A stretch of DNA of 64,000 nt. It comes from Candidatus Paceibacter sp. (GTDB lineage: Bacteria; Patescibacteriota; Minisyncoccia; Phycocordibacterales; GCA-2747955). Under the pieces are notes generated by a model, which was not told the DNA's origin, did not search any database, and was given only the letters and a program-made list of their open reading frames with translations. A program made the translations under genes and the position numbers. Positions 159 through 32,273 of the stretch are shown piece by piece. The stretch covers positions 9,510 through 73,509 of the forward strand of contig JABACC010000006.1 of the NCBI GenBank assembly GCA_014237915.1. Reading direction: 5' to 3'. The first letter of the stretch is position 1. Every line of letters begins with the position of its first letter.

Positions 159-962
159 ATGCAAGAAATAAGTTTCCTAACAAAGAGAGAGATTAGGTGT
201 TGGAATAAAGACGGGTATCTTCTACTAAAGGGCTTATTAGGTAAGGAAAAAATCGTTCAATTAAAAGATGCTGTCAGGACTCTCCAAAAGGTTGAACAAG
301 AGAACTCAAAATACAAGAAGTTCGATATAGGTTTAGATAAAAAATTTATTATCCAAGAAGACAAAGTATTTTTAGATATGATGGATTGTGACGAGACCTT
401 TCAGTATGTGTTGGGTTTGATGGGTCCATGTGTACAATTATGCATGTCACATGCCATTATAAGACCTTCAGACAATGATTTCCCTGGTTTCATACACACA
501 GATGGTGGACAAAGCATGAACTCTATAAGGCTGTCCAAAAAAAGTAGGCCACTTCAAATTAAAATTCAATATTTTTTAACTGATGTTCAAGAAGAAAATG
601 GTGGTAATTTTGTGTATGTCCCTAGGAGTCATACCAAAGATTTTCAGTTATATAAACCAGCAAAAAAAGAAATAGAGAAAAAGATGAAGCAAATCAAGGT
701 GAAGGCTGGAGACGTATTAATATTCCCAAGCACCTTATGGCATGGGTCCGCAACTAACAGATCGACTAAAGATCGAATAAGTGTTATTTATGGTTACAAT
801 CACTCTTTTATGCGTGCTTATGATTATTCTAATGTGTCTGAAAATTTATTAGAGCGGTGTACACTTCGACAGAGAAGGCTATTGGGGGATATGGGGTCAG
901 ACATGCCTCAGAGACATTACTACTTACCTAAAGATCAGGTAAATATCATAGAAGGAATTTAA
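159..962 (+). CDS. Phytanoyl-CoA dioxygenase (PhyH)-family Fe(II)/2-oxoglutarate oxygenase
   Basis: 267 aa. Motifs 'IHTDGG' and 'WHGSATNRS' match the PhyH fold's His-x-Asp...His and Arg pattern. No database search was run. Confidence 0.45.
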   Translation: MQEISFLTKREIRCWNKDGYLLLKGLLGKEKIVQLKDAVRTLQKVEQENSKYKKFDIGLDKKFIIQEDKVFLDMMDCDETFQYVLGLMGPCVQLCMSHAIIRPSDNDFPGFIHTDGGQSMNSIRLSKKSRPLQIKIQYFLTDVQEENGGNFVYVPRSHTKDFQLYKPAKKEIEKKMKQIKVKAGDVLIFPSTLWHGSATNRSTKDRISVIYGYNHSFMRAYDYSNVSENLLERCTLRQRRLLGDMGSDMPQRHYYLPKDQVNIIEGI

Positions 963-975
963 TTTATATTATTAC

Positions 976-2217
976 ATGTTTAACAAATCTAAAAAGAGAA
1001 AATTTTTAAGTTTTAAGAATCATTTTTTAGTGGTCGGGGAGTGGTCGGGTATAGGTTCATTGATAGATGAAATGGAAGTGCTTTTTAAGCAGAGATTAAA
1101 TATAAAAAAGAGTATTCTTTCTCTGAACAAAAAAAACGACGGAGGTATAAAAAATAAAGTTTTCCCTTTATTTCCACGCCCGCGTAAAGAAGTGATGAAA
1201 GAAGTCATTGATGCATTTGAGGGTATTATTCAATGGAGCAGTCCATTTGTTATGCATAATATAACTCCTCCGGTGCTTAAGGACACTATCGTGGTGAGAT
1301 CTCTTGTTAGTGCGTATAATCCTAATTGTTTGTGGAATTTTGTGAGTGGAAATATATTAGAATACGAAAGACAGATTGGGCGGCAAATTGCAAAGCTTTT
1401 TAAATGGAATGAAGAAAAAGCAGGGATCGTTTTTACATTCGGAGGCAAGGCAACCATTCTCTATGCCATCAAAGCAGGGATTAATAGATGTAATAGAGAG
1501 TCAGTCACCAAAGGGCTTTCTGGAAATACATTTGTTATAACCTCATCGAACACACATTACTCAATTGAATATGCTTGTGTATTACTCGGTATTGGAAAAA
1601 ATAATTGCATACGAATTCCTAATAATGATGAAGGGATAATCGATCTTGAGGAGCTAAAAAAAAAAGATAATACTTCTTCATAAAGAAAAAAAAAAATCGC
1701 AGCGATCATTCTTTCTGGAGGTAACTCATTAAACTTGAAGACTGATTCTTTGGAATCAGTGTCGATACTTATAGATGAGATAATGAATGAGGTGTCGCTT
1801 GAATACCGACCTTATATTCACTTTGATGCGGTGATAGGTTGGGCTTGGATTACTTTTACTGAGTATGATTTTACGAAAAATGCTCAAGAGAGAATAAGAG
1901 GTGCGACTGCGTTAGCAGAGTTCGTGTTGCATAAAATTGAGCAAGTCACAGGTGATTCTGCATTAAATCTGTACCATCGTTCTTGCCTGTCTATTCTGGA
2001 GAGGCAAATTAACAAGACGCCTTTCGCAAAACAATACCTGAAAAGCCTGGCTCAAGTAAATTTAGAAGGAAGAGAAAAGGATGAGATTATAAATATAATA
2101 AATTATTGTTTGGTCCCAAGTGGTTCAAAAAAAGAAGAATTGAGTCAAATATTGAGTGAACACAAAATCCCAAAAGAATTAAGGAAAAAGATTATTAATC
2201 ATTTTAAGATTAAATAA
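976..2217 (+). pseudogene. Group II PLP-dependent amino-acid decarboxylase (MfnA/GadB-like), interrupted by a single in-frame TAA at 1681-1683
   Basis: ORFs 976..1683 and 1735..2217 are in the same frame, separated only by TAA. The N-half carries the SxxNL-like segment 'TFGGKATILYAIKAG'. The C-half has 'IHFDAVIGW', resembling the HVDAA(F/Y)GG motif, and the PLP-Lys context 'VLHK'. The stop falls in the loop 'DLEELKKKDNTSS*RKKKIAAIIL'. The flanks are poly-A tracts. Confidence 0.55.
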
Positions 2218-2219
2218 TT

Positions 2220-2633
2220 ATGAATAAAGTTAATAGGGCTGGGTGGGAACAAACAGACCAAGAGAATAAAAAGTCTATAAATAAATTGAGTGATTACAAA
2301 CCTCTTTTGTTTGTAGAAAAGCATGAAGAGTACGTGACTTGGGATGTGATGTTAGAACGAGCAGAAAAACACGGCGTTACACTCGGAATAAATGAGGCAA
2401 CGAAGATCTTGGAAATACAAGAAGAAATACCTGATTCGTGGCAAGGATTTAATATTATTTTTCCCGGGACCAGGTTTAAGACAAATACCAACCAGTTACA
2501 ATGCCCTTTTATTTATTACAATAAAGGTGAATGGATTCTTGATTATCATTGGTATTTATATGACTTTCATCATTCAGATATTTTTGTTATAGTAAATATT
2601 CATTACAAAAATGGTAAAATAGATCATCACTAA
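2220..2633 (+). CDS. hypothetical protein, translationally coupled to the upstream ORF
   Basis: 137 aa, starting 3 nt after the previous stop. No recognisable motif. Confidence 0.35.
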   Translation: MNKVNRAGWEQTDQENKKSINKLSDYKPLLFVEKHEEYVTWDVMLERAEKHGVTLGINEATKILEIQEEIPDSWQGFNIIFPGTRFKTNTNQLQCPFIYYNKGEWILDYHWYLYDFHHSDIFVIVNIHYKNGKIDHH

Positions 2634-2642
2634 ACTAACAAA

Positions 2643-3905
2643 ATGAATAAAATAATAAATTTAGGAAAAGAAATCACTGAGCGTGGATTTGTTGCACAGA
2701 TCTCAACAGAATCAATAGATGGGATATTGGGGGATTCAAAAAAAAGAACAGCCTATATTGGAGTTGACCCAACAGCTGACTCCATTCATGTTGGTAATCT
2801 AGTCACGTATATTTTAGCTGAACATTTAATGAGGGCTGGTCACAAAACCATCTTGCTTGTTGGAGGAGCTACAGGATTAATAGGTGATCCTTCAGGTAAA
2901 GATACTGAACGTGTCTTTTCTGGTGCTGAAAAGGTTGCCCAAAGAACTGAATGCATTACAAGTCAATTAGCTGCAATCGCCGGTCTATCAAAGATGAAAA
3001 TTGTTAATAATTACGACTGGTTTAGTAAGATTGGTTCTATCGAGTTCCTTCGCGAGATTGGTAAATATTTCACAGTAAACACAATGATGAAAAGAGATTC
3101 GATCGCAAGAAGACTTGAAGGGGAGAACGGTATTTCATACACAGAATTTTCATATTCACTCATGCAAGGTTATGACTTCTATTATTTATTCAAAGAAAAA
3201 AAGTGTGATTTGCAGATTGGAGGATCAGATCAATGGGGAAATATTGTCTCTGGTATTGATTTTATTCGAAAAAAGACAGGAGAAAAAGTGTATGGGCTAA
3301 CAATCCCGCTAGTAATTGATAAAACAACCGGTAAAAAATTCGGTAAAAGTGAGGGGAATGCTATCTGGCTTGACCCAGCAAAAACGAGCTTTTATCAATT
3401 TTATCAATTTTGGATAAACGTAGACGATAGCAACGTTATTAATTATCTAAAATTATATACATTTATTTCACTGGCTGATATAGTAAATATAGAGACTGAG
3501 CATCAAGACGAGCCACACTTGCGGAAGGCACAAAAAGTACTTGCATATGAAGTCACAGAGTTTGTTCATGGAGAAGTAATAGCTAAAAAACTCGTAAGGG
3601 CAACAGAGTTGCTCTTTAAGAATGATCAACTTAATAAACTTTCAAATTCAGACGTCGATTTAATGGAAAAGTATGCTCCCATATCTAATGTTGGTAGCCA
3701 AGAAACATTATTAGATGTTATTGTCCAAAATGGACTTGCGACTAGTAAAAATGAAGGAAGAAAATTTATTATAAACGGTGCAATTAGAATTGATGGGAGA
3801 GTAGTGGATGAGAATGTTCATATTGCAAAAATCCAAACCAGTAAGCGCCTTCTTCTTCTTTCTCGCGGAAAGAAGAAGAAGATTATTATTAGGATCAAAA
3901 AATAA
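2643..3905 (+). CDS. tyrS: Tyrosyl-tRNA synthetase
   Basis: HIGH-type motif 'HVGNLV', KMSKS-type 'KFGKSEG', C-terminal S4-like domain. 420 aa. Confidence 0.9.
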   Translation: MNKIINLGKEITERGFVAQISTESIDGILGDSKKRTAYIGVDPTADSIHVGNLVTYILAEHLMRAGHKTILLVGGATGLIGDPSGKDTERVFSGAEKVAQRTECITSQLAAIAGLSKMKIVNNYDWFSKIGSIEFLREIGKYFTVNTMMKRDSIARRLEGENGISYTEFSYSLMQGYDFYYLFKEKKCDLQIGGSDQWGNIVSGIDFIRKKTGEKVYGLTIPLVIDKTTGKKFGKSEGNAIWLDPAKTSFYQFYQFWINVDDSNVINYLKLYTFISLADIVNIETEHQDEPHLRKAQKVLAYEVTEFVHGEVIAKKLVRATELLFKNDQLNKLSNSDVDLMEKYAPISNVGSQETLLDVIVQNGLATSKNEGRKFIINGAIRIDGRVVDENVHIAKIQTSKRLLLLSRGKKKKIIIRIKK

Positions 3906-4025
3906 GCAAAACATCGTGGGATTATTTAAGGTGATTGGCCTGACTTAAAGTTTTAATGAATTTGTGAATGTTATGAACAAAAACAAAAATATAAAAAGGG
4001 AAACAGAAAATATTGATATGACTAA

Positions 4026-4385
4026 TTTAATAGAACTTTTTGAGTTTATAGAAAAAACAGAAATTTCAAAAGAACAAAATATAGTATAGTCCTACAACTA
4101 AATGGAGCTATACAAAAATGTATATCAACAGTCGGCAGAAAAGAATACGATATCCTAAATATATGGGAAAGCCCCGGGTCTTATCCTAGAGATGAAAGAT
4201 TTGAGCATTTTAAAAGAACAGACGATTGCAAAAAGGAAAAATGTCAGTACTTACCTATATGCGGAGGAGGTTGTCCATGGGATTCTATGATAGCTAAAGG
4301 GTCTCTTGGTTTTGAAGTAAGATTTTGTCAAAAAGAACTTTTGGATGAAATAAACAGAGGGTTAATGAGAATTAACTATTCATAA
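4026..4385 (+). pseudogene. C-terminal remnant of a radical-SAM SPASM-domain protein, with no start codon and the N-terminal radical-SAM core absent
   Basis: Hand translation gives '...DDCKKEKCQYLPICGGGCPWDSMIAKGSLGF...'. A CxxC...CGGGC ending is typical of the SPASM/twitch C-terminus. The open frame begins right after a stop 120 nt past tyrS, and there is no ATG/GTG/TTG upstream. Confidence 0.4.
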
Positions 4386-4491
4386 TAAATCTAAAATAAC
4401 AGTCGTGCTACAATAAAGGCACGGATGTTTTTAACAATATGAATTTAAAACAAAAACTAAATAACTACACAGATAAATATAAAATAAAAAA

Positions 4492-5181
4492 ATGGGAATT
4501 TTTCCAAACTCCCAACTATATTTTTATTATAATAAGAATTCAGTTGCAGAAAAAGATATTTTAAAAATATCAGAAACTCAAGAAAAAGCTTATTTTAAAA
4601 TTACAGAAAAACTTGGATTAGAAAAACATAAAGAAAAGATAAATTATTTTTTGTATAACACAGAAGAAGAAAAAACTGAATTTATGGGCGACGATGGTTT
4701 TGCCCAAGCAATATGGCATGATTTTTCAATACATATTATTTATACAGAAAATATAAAACCCATAGGAGAACATGAGGACACTCATCTTTTAACTTTAAGT
4801 TGGGGTGTGGCTACTGGCTTTTTTCAAGAAGGTTTGGCTGAGTATATGAGTGGGTGTATTTGGAAAAATGAAAATGGAGAAAAAAAATCAGCAGAAGATT
4901 TTATAAAAAAAGCATATAAAGAAAAATTAAATAACTCCATAGAAAACTTTTTTTCTCATTTTTTTTGGAATGAAACAATTGAAGGTAAGTGGGGATACTA
5001 CTATCCTTTAGCTGGAGTTTTTACAAAATTTTTAATAGAAAAGTTTGGATTAGAAAAATACAGAGAATTTTACAAAAGCATAAATAGAAAAAATTCTTCA
5101 AAAGAAATTATTGAAAAATTCGAAACTTTTTTTGGAAATTTTAATGATAATAAAAATATTTTTGAAAATAATTTTAAATAA
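4492..5181 (+). CDS. hypothetical protein with an HExxH motif (putative zinc metallopeptidase-like)
   Basis: 229 aa. 'GEHEDTHLL' contains HEDTH, matching HExxH. No further support. Confidence 0.3.
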   Translation: MGIFPNSQLYFYYNKNSVAEKDILKISETQEKAYFKITEKLGLEKHKEKINYFLYNTEEEKTEFMGDDGFAQAIWHDFSIHIIYTENIKPIGEHEDTHLLTLSWGVATGFFQEGLAEYMSGCIWKNENGEKKSAEDFIKKAYKEKLNNSIENFFSHFFWNETIEGKWGYYYPLAGVFTKFLIEKFGLEKYREFYKSINRKNSSKEIIEKFETFFGNFNDNKNIFENNFK

Positions 5182-5207
5182 TAATTTTTTATTTTTAGAA
5201 TAAATAC

Positions 5208-5257
5208 ATCTTTCTTTTCTCTAAAATCGTTCCAAGTTCTCTTATAAAATTGCGCAT
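5208..5257. repeat. 50-bp direct repeat copy 1 (atctttcttttctctaaaatcgttccaagttctcttataaaattgcgca)
   Basis: About 90% identical to 6928..6977. Both lie immediately after a stop codon, and together they bound a 1.7-kb segment. Confidence 0.8.
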
Positions 5258-5280
5258 AATATAAAAATATAACTATATAG

Positions 5281-5496
5281 ATGGCGAAAATGGAGAATGG
5301 ACCTATAAATTTTAATGAACTTATGAACGTTCCAAATAAAAAAAGAAAAATAAAAAATAATTTAAAGAGTATTGATATGAGTAATTTAGTAGAAATTATT
5401 AAGTTTCTGGAAAATAAAAAACCAGAAGAAAAAAATAATAAGAACCTAAAGAAAAACCAAGTATTAACCTCAAAAGGAGATATTGTTAATTTATAA
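5281..5496 (+). CDS. hypothetical small basic protein
   Basis: 71 aa, Lys/Asn-rich, inside the repeat-bounded islet. Confidence 0.25.
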   Translation: MAKMENGPINFNELMNVPNKKRKIKNNLKSIDMSNLVEIIKFLENKKPEEKNNKNLKKNQVLTSKGDIVNL

Positions 5497-5883: not shown

Positions 5884-6444
5884 ATGAGTAAGAAAGATAA
5901 ATTAAAAAAGCTTATCTGGAAAACTATTAGTTCTTGTGGGGACAACGACGTGTATGAAACCAAATTATGGAAGTTATTGTTCTTTATTGAAGCAGATTTC
6001 TATGAAAAATATAATGAAACCATCACGGGAGTTAAATATTTAAAGAATATTCATGGTCCAACACCAGATTATAAAGTAGGGAAAAAGGCGCTTGATGAAT
6101 TAGTTGAGAGTGCATTTATTGTTGAAATTAAAGACCAATATGGGATAAAGTACCGTGTTAATAATGATTATGATATAGAACATCTATCCAGTCAACAGAT
6201 TGATTCTATCAATAACACTTGCGATAATTTTTCTGGGTTGTCTGTAAAACGATTATCTATACTATCCCATAATGACCCTGTGTACTTAATGGCTGAGAAG
6301 ATACACTCCCTACTTGATTTCGGTAACGTAAAATACAGATCAGAAGACGAGATGATTTCAAAAGATTTATCAGAAATTGACACTAGTCCAATTAAATTAG
6401 AAACTAGTGAAATTACAAAATTAAAAAAAATACTGGCTATATAA
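5884..6444 (+). CDS. Panacea-domain (DUF4065, SocA/PanA-like) putative antitoxin
   Basis: 'TKLWKLLFFIEADFYEKYNETITGVKYLKNIHGPTPDY' matches the Panacea pattern KLQKLLYFA...G.pL....f.AwkyGPVvp. An 18-nt gap to the downstream ORF suggests an operon. Confidence 0.5.
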   Translation: MSKKDKLKKLIWKTISSCGDNDVYETKLWKLLFFIEADFYEKYNETITGVKYLKNIHGPTPDYKVGKKALDELVESAFIVEIKDQYGIKYRVNNDYDIEHLSSQQIDSINNTCDNFSGLSVKRLSILSHNDPVYLMAEKIHSLLDFGNVKYRSEDEMISKDLSEIDTSPIKLETSEITKLKKILAI

Positions 6445-6911: not shown

Positions 6912-6927
6912 AATTATAAATAAAAGT

Positions 6928-6977
6928 ATCTTTTTCCTCTCTAAAAATCGTTCCAAGTTCTCTTACAAAATTGCGCA
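6928..6977. repeat. 50-bp direct repeat copy 2
   Basis: See 5208..5257. Confidence 0.8.
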
Positions 6978-7261
6978 AAAACGAAAAACCAAAGCGAATG
7001 CTTTGGTTTTTCTGATTTTTACAGCAGATCTAAGGGATTCGAAAAGAGGTGATTTACGACGAGCAATTGCAAGAAGTTGAGCCGGCGGGGCAGCGATTTT
7101 TTAATAAGCGTAGCGAATTTAGAACTAGCGCCGAGTCCCTTTGGCCGCGCAAAAAATAAAATATAAAAAAAATCGACTTTATTGGCCGATTTTTATTTTT
7201 TCAAATAAAAAACCCTCTCTTTAATTTTTTAAAAAAGAGAGGGTTTGTTTTGAAGAAATTA

Positions 7262-8745: not shown

Positions 8746-9249
8746 TTAAGAACCTAAGACAATTCCATCAATTATAGTTTTGTAAACACTTAAGTTATTT
8801 AATCTTTCTGGTAACTTTCCTGAATTTTCAAGATCATCTAGTCTTTTCCAGAAATTTTCAATAGATAAACTTTTGGCATTTTCCCAATATCCGTTTTCCA
8901 AAAAATAAACAAAAAGATTGAAGCGTTGTTCGTCACTACCACTTTCAGCTTTATTTTTAAACAAAAAATTAACAATCTCGTAATTACCAGATTTCACTGC
9001 TAGATCTAGCGGAGTTAAATTTTTTATATTTAAAGCGTTAATATCAGCACCATTTTCTGAAAAAAATTTATCCGAATACAGGTTTCGATAAATTACAGCA
9101 AAACCTAAAAGGGTATTTGTTTCTATTGTTTTGTCAAGATTTATGCTTTTTAATTTTTTTTCTGAAAAACTTATTCTACCCGAACCACTAGTTATTAAGT
9201 AAATCACATATTCATAAAAAGAATTTTCATCTTCTATTTTTTTTATCAT
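8746..9249 (-). CDS. ankyrin-repeat protein
   Basis: 'GADINALNIKNLTPLDLAVKSGNYEIVNFLFKN' matches the ankyrin repeat consensus G-x-D-x-N-A-x-D-x-x-G-x-T-P-L-H-x-A-x-x-x-G-x-x-E-I-V-x-x-L-L. Confidence 0.55.
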   Translation of the reverse strand: MIKKIEDENSFYEYVIYLITSGSGRISFSEKKLKSINLDKTIETNTLLGFAVIYRNLYSDKFFSENGADINALNIKNLTPLDLAVKSGNYEIVNFLFKNKAESGSDEQRFNLFVYFLENGYWENAKSLSIENFWKRLDDLENSGKLPERLNNLSVYKTIIDGIVLGS

Positions 9250-28112: not shown

Positions 28113-28635
28113 TAAAAAAAATATAATGTTCTTTTAGCGGGCCCCGCAAGGGCCCGCCAAAACACTCACACCTGTGAGTGTTTTTTATTAATTTTTTATT
28201 TTATAAAATTTTTTTTGGCGGATTTACCGAAGGCAAATCCGCCAAAAAATTTTAATAACAAGTTATCAAATTTTTTTATAAAAAAATATTGACTTTGTCT
28301 TCTAAATAAATATAATGGCTTCCACTTGTTTTTTTTATTTTTTTTATTTTGTAGTTTAAAAAATAAAAAGCAGGTTTGAACTTTGAAAATTAAATAGTCT
28401 TTTCAATCTCTAGAAAAATTTTTTAAATTTTTTTAGGGAAACAAAAGCAGGTAAAATTAAATTTTTACTGAACGAATACAAACTCAAACAAACAAACAAA
28501 CTCGTGTTTTTAAGATTTTTTTTAGAAAAAAATCTAGGTTTTTAAAACTCATAAAAACCGACCCAGAAAATTACTTTTTAAATTTTTTTAAAATTTAAAA
28601 AGTAAAAATTATATCTTTGAAATTTTCTAATGAAA

Positions 28636-31945
<3,310 letters not shown>

Positions 31946-32054
31946 TTTTCATTAGGAAATTTTAAGGATATAATTTTGTATTTTATTTTACAGAAAGTTA
32001 ATTCCTGTTTTTGAAAAGACTATTTAATTTTTAAGGTTATTAAAAATATTTTAT

Positions 32055-32160
32055 TCTGGTGCTTTGTCGGAGGGGTAACACCTGTTTCCATTCCGAACAC
32101 AGAAGTTAAGACCTCTAGAGCCGATGGTACTGCCTTGCGGGAGAGTAGGCAGGCGCCGGA
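32055..32160 (+). rRNA. rrf: 5S ribosomal RNA
   Basis: ccattccgaacacagaagttaag...gccgatggtactg...gagagtaggcaggcgcc. The ends pair with each other. Confidence 0.85.
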
Positions 32161-32273
32161 ATAAAGTATTTTTTTTTGTTTAAAATTTTTTTTTAAAAAA
32201 TTTTAAAACAAATTTTTAAAAAAATTTGTTTTTCTTTTTTAAAAATATATAATATAAAAATATTTAAAATTTT

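Follow-up and report, generated by a model that had tools for sequence, protein, structure and literature searches.

What became of the enzyme genes at the start of this 64-kb stretch of DNA (the window; positions are counted from its first letter), part of a small, AT-rich, Patescibacteria-like metagenome genome of ~28% GC? The original prediction saw a single decaying tailoring-enzyme locus with two lesions, made up of a PhyH-like oxygenase gene, a pyridoxal 5'-phosphate (PLP) decarboxylase gene cut by one in-frame TAA, and an orphan SPASM C-terminus. We find that these genes belong to two clusters separated by the tyrosyl-tRNA synthetase gene tyrS: an upstream one, which we call cluster A, and a downstream one, cluster B. 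Our reading, to which we give a probability of about 85%, is that two unrelated accessory gene clusters flanking tyrS were wrecked by deletions and point lesions. The recent decay of an accessory region that had been predicted is supported and was understated: there are four lesions rather than two, and what we describe is ordinary recent gene loss by pseudogenization, wider in extent than first described. The lesions, homologies, synteny and junction positions (Table 1) are matters of direct observation. None of the remnants is expected to yield an active enzyme.

Table 1. Genes, remnants, junctions and lesions of the two clusters around tyrS, in window positions
Feature	Position	Strand	Basis or remark
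PhyH-family 2-oxoglutarate (2OG)/Fe(II) oxygenase, 267 aa, apparently intact	159..962	+	PF05721, homologs
5' part of group II PLP-decarboxylase pseudogene, 235 codons	976..1683	+	Sequence and translation; ends at in-frame TAA
Lesion 1, TAA	1681-1683	+	In decarboxylase 5' stump
Decarboxylase frame after the TAA	1684..1887	+	P0002 residues 244-312; contains IHFDAVIGW motif
Deletion junction, precise to a few codons	1885..1890	+	Decarboxylase to nucleotidyltransferase homology, same frame
Lesion 2, apparent in-frame deletion of ~1.5 kb	~1885-1890	+	Decarboxylase 5' part joined to nucleotidyltransferase 3' end
3' remnant of DUF4037/aminoglycoside-nucleotidyltransferase-like gene	1888..2217	+	L003 g346 residues ~234-346; natural stop TAA 2215-2217
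Conserved 137-aa protein, intact, cluster partner	2220..2633	+	Homologs in L003, L014
tyrS, tyrosyl-tRNA synthetase, intact	2643..3905	+	PF00579, 259.8 bits; separates the two decayed clusters
Truncated copy of part of 71-aa open reading frame	3948..4081	+	Repeat family D1; 71% nt identity to 5281-5496, 50% aa identity (tblastn)
SPASM-domain remnant	4044..4385	+	TIGR04085; homology 4077-4382, last ~102 codons of ~430-aa radical SAM/SPASM peptide maturase
Lesion 3, apparent deletion of >1.1 kb	~4077	+	Radical SAM half gone; upstream small open reading frame presumably gone, judging from relatives
Terminator-like hairpin and T run	4403..4424	+	Consensus scan; downstream of SPASM remnant
HExxH-motif protein gene, maturase partner in relatives	4439..5181	+	1-nt frameshift at T5 run 4521-4525
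Lesion 4, 1-nt frameshift	T5 run 4521-4525	+	In HExxH gene downstream of SPASM remnant

The decarboxylase gene carries the heaviest damage. The reading frame that starts at 976 holds the predicted TAA and is then open to 2217; public assemblies list its first 235 codons as a protein of 235 aa (P0001). Over 287 residues the sequence is 47% identical (E = 1e-83) to P0002, a 566-aa protein of the related locus L003 and the closest intact homolog. The Pfam profile Pyridoxal_deC (PF00282) gives 21.0 bits for the N-terminal part of the window open reading frame (ORF) and 22.8 bits for the merged ORF, with a gathering cutoff of 27, so the decarboxylase assignment rests on identity to P0002, which itself scores 61.4 bits. 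A group II PLP-decarboxylase homolog interrupted by an in-frame TAA is therefore present as predicted, but it is not otherwise intact. The merged ORF has 413 aa, whereas the 17 homologs, all the members of this subfamily that could be detected, have 531 to 566 aa (except for one of 664 aa with extra domains). About 302 decarboxylase codons are left in the window, broken by the TAA, and no full-length ORF (~530 to 566 aa) is present. Homology ends at about P0002 residue 312, ahead of the PLP-lysine motif DFHK; the residues of that motif (D340, F341, H342, and K343 in P0002) are invariant in 16 aligned homologs and have no counterpart in the window.

Past ~1885 the frame continues into the C terminus of a DUF4037 nucleotidyltransferase. 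In tblastn searches with the L003 proteins, window positions 1165 to 1992 matched residues 69 to 347 of the decarboxylase and positions 1876 to 2115 matched residues 231 to 313 of the adjoining g346 (E = 4e-9); the proteins of a second related locus, L014, also supported the junction. Profile comparison with hhalign assigned residues 1 to 69 after the TAA to columns 238 to 306 of the decarboxylase family (probability 99.6%, E = 6e-24) and residues 68 to 158 to columns 229 to 315 of the nine-member 346-aa family (91.8%, E = 7e-7). Because the two ranges abut at post-TAA residues 68 and 69, we place the junction at ~1885 to 1890. The 346-aa family carries PF13228 (DUF4037), and g346 also has a weak Polbeta match in its N-terminal region; DUF4037 has been grouped with the aminoglycoside nucleotidyltransferase C-terminal domain and with HEPN-like domains (PMC3710099). 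The window retains the last ~110 residues, which lie downstream of the DUF4037 match itself. The N-terminal region is missing, and its invariant columns G30 to D50 (of the G-x-x-x-D-x-D type) have no window counterpart. Two nucleotides separate the nucleotidyltransferase stop codon from the next gene, the same tight spacing as in L003. A deletion of ~1.5 kb would have removed the 3' ~255 codons of the decarboxylase and the 5' ~233 codons of the nucleotidyltransferase and joined the two stumps in frame, and the TAA additionally breaks the decarboxylase stump. One BLAST alignment suggested that GDSALNLYHRS is a mutated ADSAGVDFHKNG, that is, the PLP motif (ADSxGVDFHK). This resemblance is coincidental: tblastn and hhalign trace the segment to the nucleotidyltransferase tail, and the apparent YHR is nucleotidyltransferase-derived sequence.

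The TAA sits between an A10 run (1656 to 1665) and an A11 run (1686 to 1696). The interrupted sequence had been said still to align as one group II decarboxylase loop, and its alignment to the 17 homologs is indeed ungapped across the stop codon. Since the homologs have L, K, I, Q, or S in that column, a single-substitution origin is plausible; one change from AAA, TTA, CAA, or a similar codon would explain the TAA. We also considered compensating ±1 slippage in the two runs. Taking one A from A10 and adding one to A11 gives an open frame (…KKKIILLHKEKKK…) with a mean BLOSUM62 score against the 17 homologs of −4.5 over 8 columns, compared with −8.8 for the frame as it stands; scoring the stop codon as a penalty accounts for about half of that difference. 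Slippage thus improves the homolog fit only marginally, so that either origin of the TAA may hold, and the matter is irrelevant to function. Positions 1635 to 1696 form an imperfect 31-nt tandem repeat (71% identity; repeat family D8) that holds both poly-A runs. With the homolog alignment ungapped over this stretch, base composition probably accounts for the repeat.

The arrangement of related loci shows what cluster A looks like when whole. The gene order in L003 is PhyH, decarboxylase (566 aa), g346, g131, and tyrS; in L014 it is PhyH, decarboxylase (543 aa), nucleotidyltransferase (343 aa), tyrS, and g141, a 141-aa homolog of the small protein. Synteny of tyrS with cluster A extends to L011, where a decarboxylase homolog lies with an epimerase, an APH-type kinase, a glycosyltransferase, and tyrS, and in L009 a decarboxylase homolog stands beside a DUF4037 nucleotidyltransferase and a kinase-like gene. 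The five-gene unit, which joins PhyH, a rare group II decarboxylase of ~550 aa, an aminoglycoside-nucleotidyltransferase-like DUF4037 protein, and a protein of ~135 aa to tyrS, has stayed together in Patescibacteria lineages with no more than 40 to 50% protein identity. In the window, the PhyH-like oxygenase was correctly recognized: its ORF scores 70.5 bits against PF05721 (cutoff 22), shares 51% identity with its syntenic counterparts in L003 and L014, and conserves the HxD...H iron triad and the 2OG-binding Arg (H113, D115, H195, and R206, invariant with respect to three homologs). The 137-aa protein is 40% identical to g131 and 36% identical to g141, with 36 invariant columns, and has no match in Pfam or NCBIfam.

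Across tyrS, the SPASM fragment is a remnant of a second and different system. It scores 45.4 bits against TIGR04085 (cutoff 27; residues 14 to 89 of 113) and has no Pfam match. Profile searches had been proposed as a check on the first assignments: they bear out PhyH in Pfam and SPASM through TIGR04085, while Pyridoxal_deC stays below gathering and SPASM goes unmatched in Pfam. The claim of an orphan C terminus holds in that no radical SAM half occurs in the 64 kb (tblastn with the radical SAM half of L005, E ≤ 1) and the frame has no usable start. It needs correction in one respect, namely that the frame is open from 4044 rather than 4026, because of a TGA at 4041 to 4043. Homology begins 33 nt further on, and the only in-frame ATG, GTG, or TTG is ATG 4287, which leaves 32 aa. 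Six of seven SPASM cysteines are kept; the missing one is the first (that of PWC in L007 and L008), whose position falls before the 4077 junction. Identity of the remnant is 66% to L004, 57% to L005, and 59% to L007. The gap between the tyrS stop codon and the first SPASM homology is just 171 nt long, and within it a 134-nt repeat copy ends where that homology starts, marking a second deletion or recombination junction. Of the cluster B maturase, only the last ~102 codons remain, and they abut the shortened copy of a 71-aa ORF that is unrelated to them and has no homolog in any related locus.

The only close homologs of the remnant, P0019 and P0020, led to loci where the gene after a radical SAM/SPASM enzyme is homologous to the window ORF at 4492 to 5181. 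A search of relatives for an intact radical SAM/SPASM gene after tyrS had been proposed; the gene is found instead upstream of the HExxH gene, where L007 and L008 have maturases of 429 and 474 aa, respectively. Directly upstream of the radical SAM/SPASM gene, at L005 ~238 to 360, L007 6352 to 6483, and L008 ~1440 to 1580, lies an ORF ending in ...F(A/S)K(T/L)(H/G)KDSCCG(S/R)R. This KDSCCG ORF, of ~40 aa (43 aa in L007), recurs in each of the three related loci that span the region, and nothing like it occurs in the window. It looks like a precursor peptide and is a candidate precursor of a ribosomally synthesized and posttranslationally modified peptide (RiPP), apparently of an undescribed family in Patescibacteria; neither it nor the HExxH partner had a match in the libraries searched (Pfam and NCBIfam), and a search of the literature on SPASM RiPPs in Patescibacteria turned up nothing of relevance. 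Judged by gene content, cluster B may have the layout of a RiPP system, with a precursor, a radical SAM/SPASM maturase, and a possible metallopeptidase. The window's own 41-aa (3964 to 4089) and 71-aa (5281 to 5496) ORFs were tried as precursors and rejected, the relatives having the different KDSCCG ORF. The maturase gene is also disrupted elsewhere, by a TAG (404 to 406) at a conserved Tyr codon in L004 and by the loss of 1 nt in an A run (~1170 to 1185) in L005. It is broken in three of the five loci that span the maturase region; the breakage in L004 and L005 could be recurrent decay or contig errors.

The fourth lesion lies in the HExxH gene. According to tblastn with the L004 and L005 homologs, codons 1 to ~29 are in frame 2 and the rest in frame 1, and the homolog reading frame implies T6 where the window has T5. 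An internal ATG at 4492 gives rise to the annotated 229-aa ORF, and a slightly shortened product from this codon may still be made. The motif of the protein is HEDTH…E. It has no sequence match in Pfam, NCBIfam, or PDB, and a single-sequence AlphaFold model (mean predicted local distance difference test score, 49) is too poor to use. Downstream of the gene, a ~70-nt direct repeat (5199 to 5267 and 6919 to 6988; 34-nt core with one mismatch; only two copies in the window) lies on both sides of a 1.72-kb segment containing the 71-aa ORF, a 76-aa minus-strand ORF, a SocA/Panacea-domain antitoxin gene (5884 to 6444), and a 149-aa ORF. The repeat may represent a cassette boundary or a duplicated regulatory region.

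How old is the damage? Random sequence of window composition stays open for ~11 codons, while the remnants are open for 235 plus 177 and for 113 codons; the other two frames of the same stretches contain 37 to 45 and 9 to 10 stop codons, respectively. The decarboxylase and SPASM remnants are 47% and 66% identical to their homologs, and the neighbors taken as intact, PhyH, tyrS, and the HExxH gene, are 51%, 45%, and 63% identical to theirs. Of all possible substitutions, 5.2% create a stop codon, and one stop in the chimera corresponds to ~1.6% neutral divergence. Because the remnants are as homolog-like as the intact neighbors and hold only one stop codon, the decay is probably recent, dating back a few percent of neutral divergence or less. 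Both clusters are sporadic accessory elements, since none of 66 metagenome tyrS loci, all at most 42% identical in tyrS, carries any cluster genes and the decarboxylase subfamily is so small.

The mechanism proposed here supposes that the ancestral state of this locus was the intact arrangement of the relatives and that the lesions arose by mutation and are not read errors. Several points weigh against it. The ancestral arrangement is drawn from distant genomes (40 to 50% protein identity), and a search for closer ones found none, with tyrS reaching 42% identity at best. The junctions are not placeable at nucleotide resolution, and the match of the nucleotidyltransferase tail is only moderate: its hhalign probability is 91.8%, and a whole-library phmmer search with that piece returned just the piece itself and one weak match. 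The A10, A11, and T5 homopolymers may hide consensus errors or heterogeneity among strains. Finally, an in-frame fusion, which has a 1-in-3 chance of arising, could hint at selection for the fusion product.

A more general explanation could be that the lesions are artifacts of metagenome assembly, with collapsed or chimeric joins at ~1885 and ~4077, or that the consensus masks a coexisting intact allele. The sequence is indeed a metagenome scaffold, and the second junction coincides with the end of the 134-nt repeat, a place where assemblers can jump. However, at only 71% identity the two copies of the repeat differ too much to lead an assembler astray, no repeat lies at the first junction, and the missing halves were not found elsewhere in the 64-kb window. 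The window matches the 87-kb ENA metagenome scaffold ERZ23487945 (BUSC20-1_SAMN14422900 scaffold_112) base for base, and an independently assembled Logan contig (SRR11455651) is identical as well, not one base differing across the 11.7 kb and 7.9 kb shared with the window; the stretches shared with both assemblies span all four lesions. We consider an assembly artifact or a masked intact allele improbable.

Less probable again is that the decay has left something new and functional, the fused decarboxylase-nucleotidyltransferase ORF as a regulatory or scaffolding protein or the SPASM tail as a small Fe-S protein. The fusion is in frame with no stops besides the TAA, and the SPASM piece retains most of its cysteines, as noted above. 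On the other side, both catalytic cores are gone from the fusion, and it holds a stop codon that this genome normally uses. Among 1.8 to 5.8 billion proteins, none besides this one was found to have the fused architecture. The SPASM frame, for its part, has no start before 4287 and has lost its first motif cysteine. We regard such a product as very unlikely.

The least credible explanation, which extends an alternative offered originally, is that the TAA is a sequencing or assembly error at the poly-A runs that flank it, or a readthrough or slippage site, and that the decarboxylase works: the open alternative frame fits the homologs somewhat less badly, but by a small margin that owes about half to the stop-codon penalty, two different assemblies agree at every base across the TAA, TAA is the main stop codon of the genome, and whatever codon stands at 1681, the ORF is without the PLP-lysine motif and ~255 C-terminal residues. 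Because that motif and the C-terminal ~250 residues are deleted, error or readthrough at the TAA is irrelevant to function; no active decarboxylase is possible, however the codon is read, misread, or mis-sequenced. Reassignment of stop codons was ruled out. TAA ends 42 of the 53 long open frames in the window, TAG 10, and TGA 1, and the window genes are unfragmented under table 11, so the scarcity of TGA is probably composition bias rather than recoding.

We conclude that two accessory clusters around tyrS have decayed, and the setting of the locus can be outlined briefly. GC content is 25 to 34% through most of the window, and the nearest relatives of several of its genes are Patescibacteria metagenome-assembled genomes (Moranbacteria, Saccharibacteria, and "Patescibacteria group"). 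A scan for promoters and terminators gave counts at or below shuffled expectation. Downstream of the decayed clusters, a low-GC stretch encodes a 167-aa ankyrin-repeat protein (8746 to 9249, minus strand). The 23S rRNA gene (28632 to 31952) is 396 nt longer than the bacterial model, and it has no intron-family match and no ORF of ≥90 aa; a 5S rRNA gene follows at 32055 to 32161. The rRNA operon is unlinked, as no 16S rRNA gene was found anywhere in the 64-kb window.

These results matter first for annotation. The "hypothetical proteins" of 235 aa and 144 or 160 aa in the public record are two pieces of one chimeric pseudogene, the SPASM stretch is a remnant, and the 229-aa ORF is a 5'-frameshifted gene. 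Second, the two uncharacterized clusters conserved in relatives, one linking PhyH, decarboxylase, and nucleotidyltransferase to tyrS and the other a KDSCCG peptide, a maturase, and a HExxH protein, are mildly interesting and testable. Cluster A fits a role in modifying an amino acid or a small molecule derived from one, because it combines a hydroxylase, an amino-acid decarboxylase, and a nucleotidyltransferase of a small-molecule type and because of the neighbors in L009, L011, L015, and L016. At L015 1 to 7000 and L016 1082 to 9846, distant DUF4037 nucleotidyltransferase homologs adjoin aminoacyl-tRNA synthetase genes (pheS; two cysS-like), with ATP-grasp, asparagine-synthetase-like, PhyH, 2OG-Fe_Oxy_2, and Asp/Glu racemase genes nearby; L015 also carries a radical SAM/SPASM gene. 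This recurrent synthetase linkage echoes that of tyrS in the window. From its predicted enzymes, cluster A could make a hydroxylated, decarboxylated, and nucleotidylated amino-acid derivative functionally tied to an aminoacyl-tRNA synthetase, and cluster B could be a Patescibacteria-specific RiPP-like system with a new radical SAM/SPASM subfamily and a HExxH protein. It is a tentative and rather doubtful suggestion that the intact clusters of relatives are two undescribed systems of these kinds, a synthetase-tied pathway and a RiPP-like system, both lost in the window lineage. If it is true, the window records how a single lineage lost both while PhyH and the small protein remained.

Comparison with known systems places each piece. 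Group II PLP decarboxylases (PF00282), such as the L-2,4-diaminobutyrate decarboxylase of structure 2qma, GAD65/67, and DesA, resemble the ancestral family of the window gene, whose profile matches structures at E values of 1e-42 to 1e-36 and which has both the H-x-D motif with the pyridine-binding Asp and the D-F-H-K PLP-lysine motif. The window copy retains the N-terminal part and the IHFDAVIGW motif but differs in having a stop codon and neither the PLP lysine nor the C-terminal part, and its intact relatives form a rare subfamily that falls well short of every NCBIfam equivalog cutoff (56 bits against 606). Kanamycin and other aminoglycoside nucleotidyltransferases combine a Pol-beta nucleotidyltransferase core with Aminoglycoside_NT_C/DUF4037. 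The g346 protein matches DUF4037 and, weakly, Polbeta, and the window tail aligns C-terminally, but the whole N-terminal region has been lost and there is no evidence of an antibiotic-resistance role.

Operons that join tyrS to a tyrosine decarboxylase gene (tdc) occur in Enterococcus and Lactobacillus. Like them, L003, L014, L011, and the window have a group II decarboxylase gene physically linked to tyrS; unlike them, cluster A has another decarboxylase subfamily, other partners (PhyH and nucleotidyltransferase), and no transporter gene, and the linkage may be plain synteny. The L007 and L008 maturases align end to end with CefB (NF038107), TIGR04463, and the geopeptide maturase TIGR04280, and the relatives' maturases follow a short Cys-containing ORF, as in peptide-maturase layouts. 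The L007 protein, however, scores 177, 169, and 150 bits against cutoffs of 600, 525, and 400, respectively, which makes it related but not a member. Because these scores are far below the equivalog cutoffs, the relatives' maturases are a separate radical SAM/SPASM subfamily, of which the window keeps the SPASM tail only.

The closest likeness is to the pseudogenes of reduced AT-rich genomes, in which deletions, nonsense mutations, and homopolymer-associated lesions are ordinary. The window shares with them deletions, a nonsense mutation, and a homopolymer frameshift in accessory genes, as well as poly-A and poly-T runs at or beside the point lesions, and it differs from them in nothing distinctive. 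Pseudogenization here would not surprise a specialist in genome reduction; the locus offers a clean example of how an accessory biosynthetic cluster is lost from a small Patescibacteria-like genome through kilobase deletions and homopolymer-associated point lesions.

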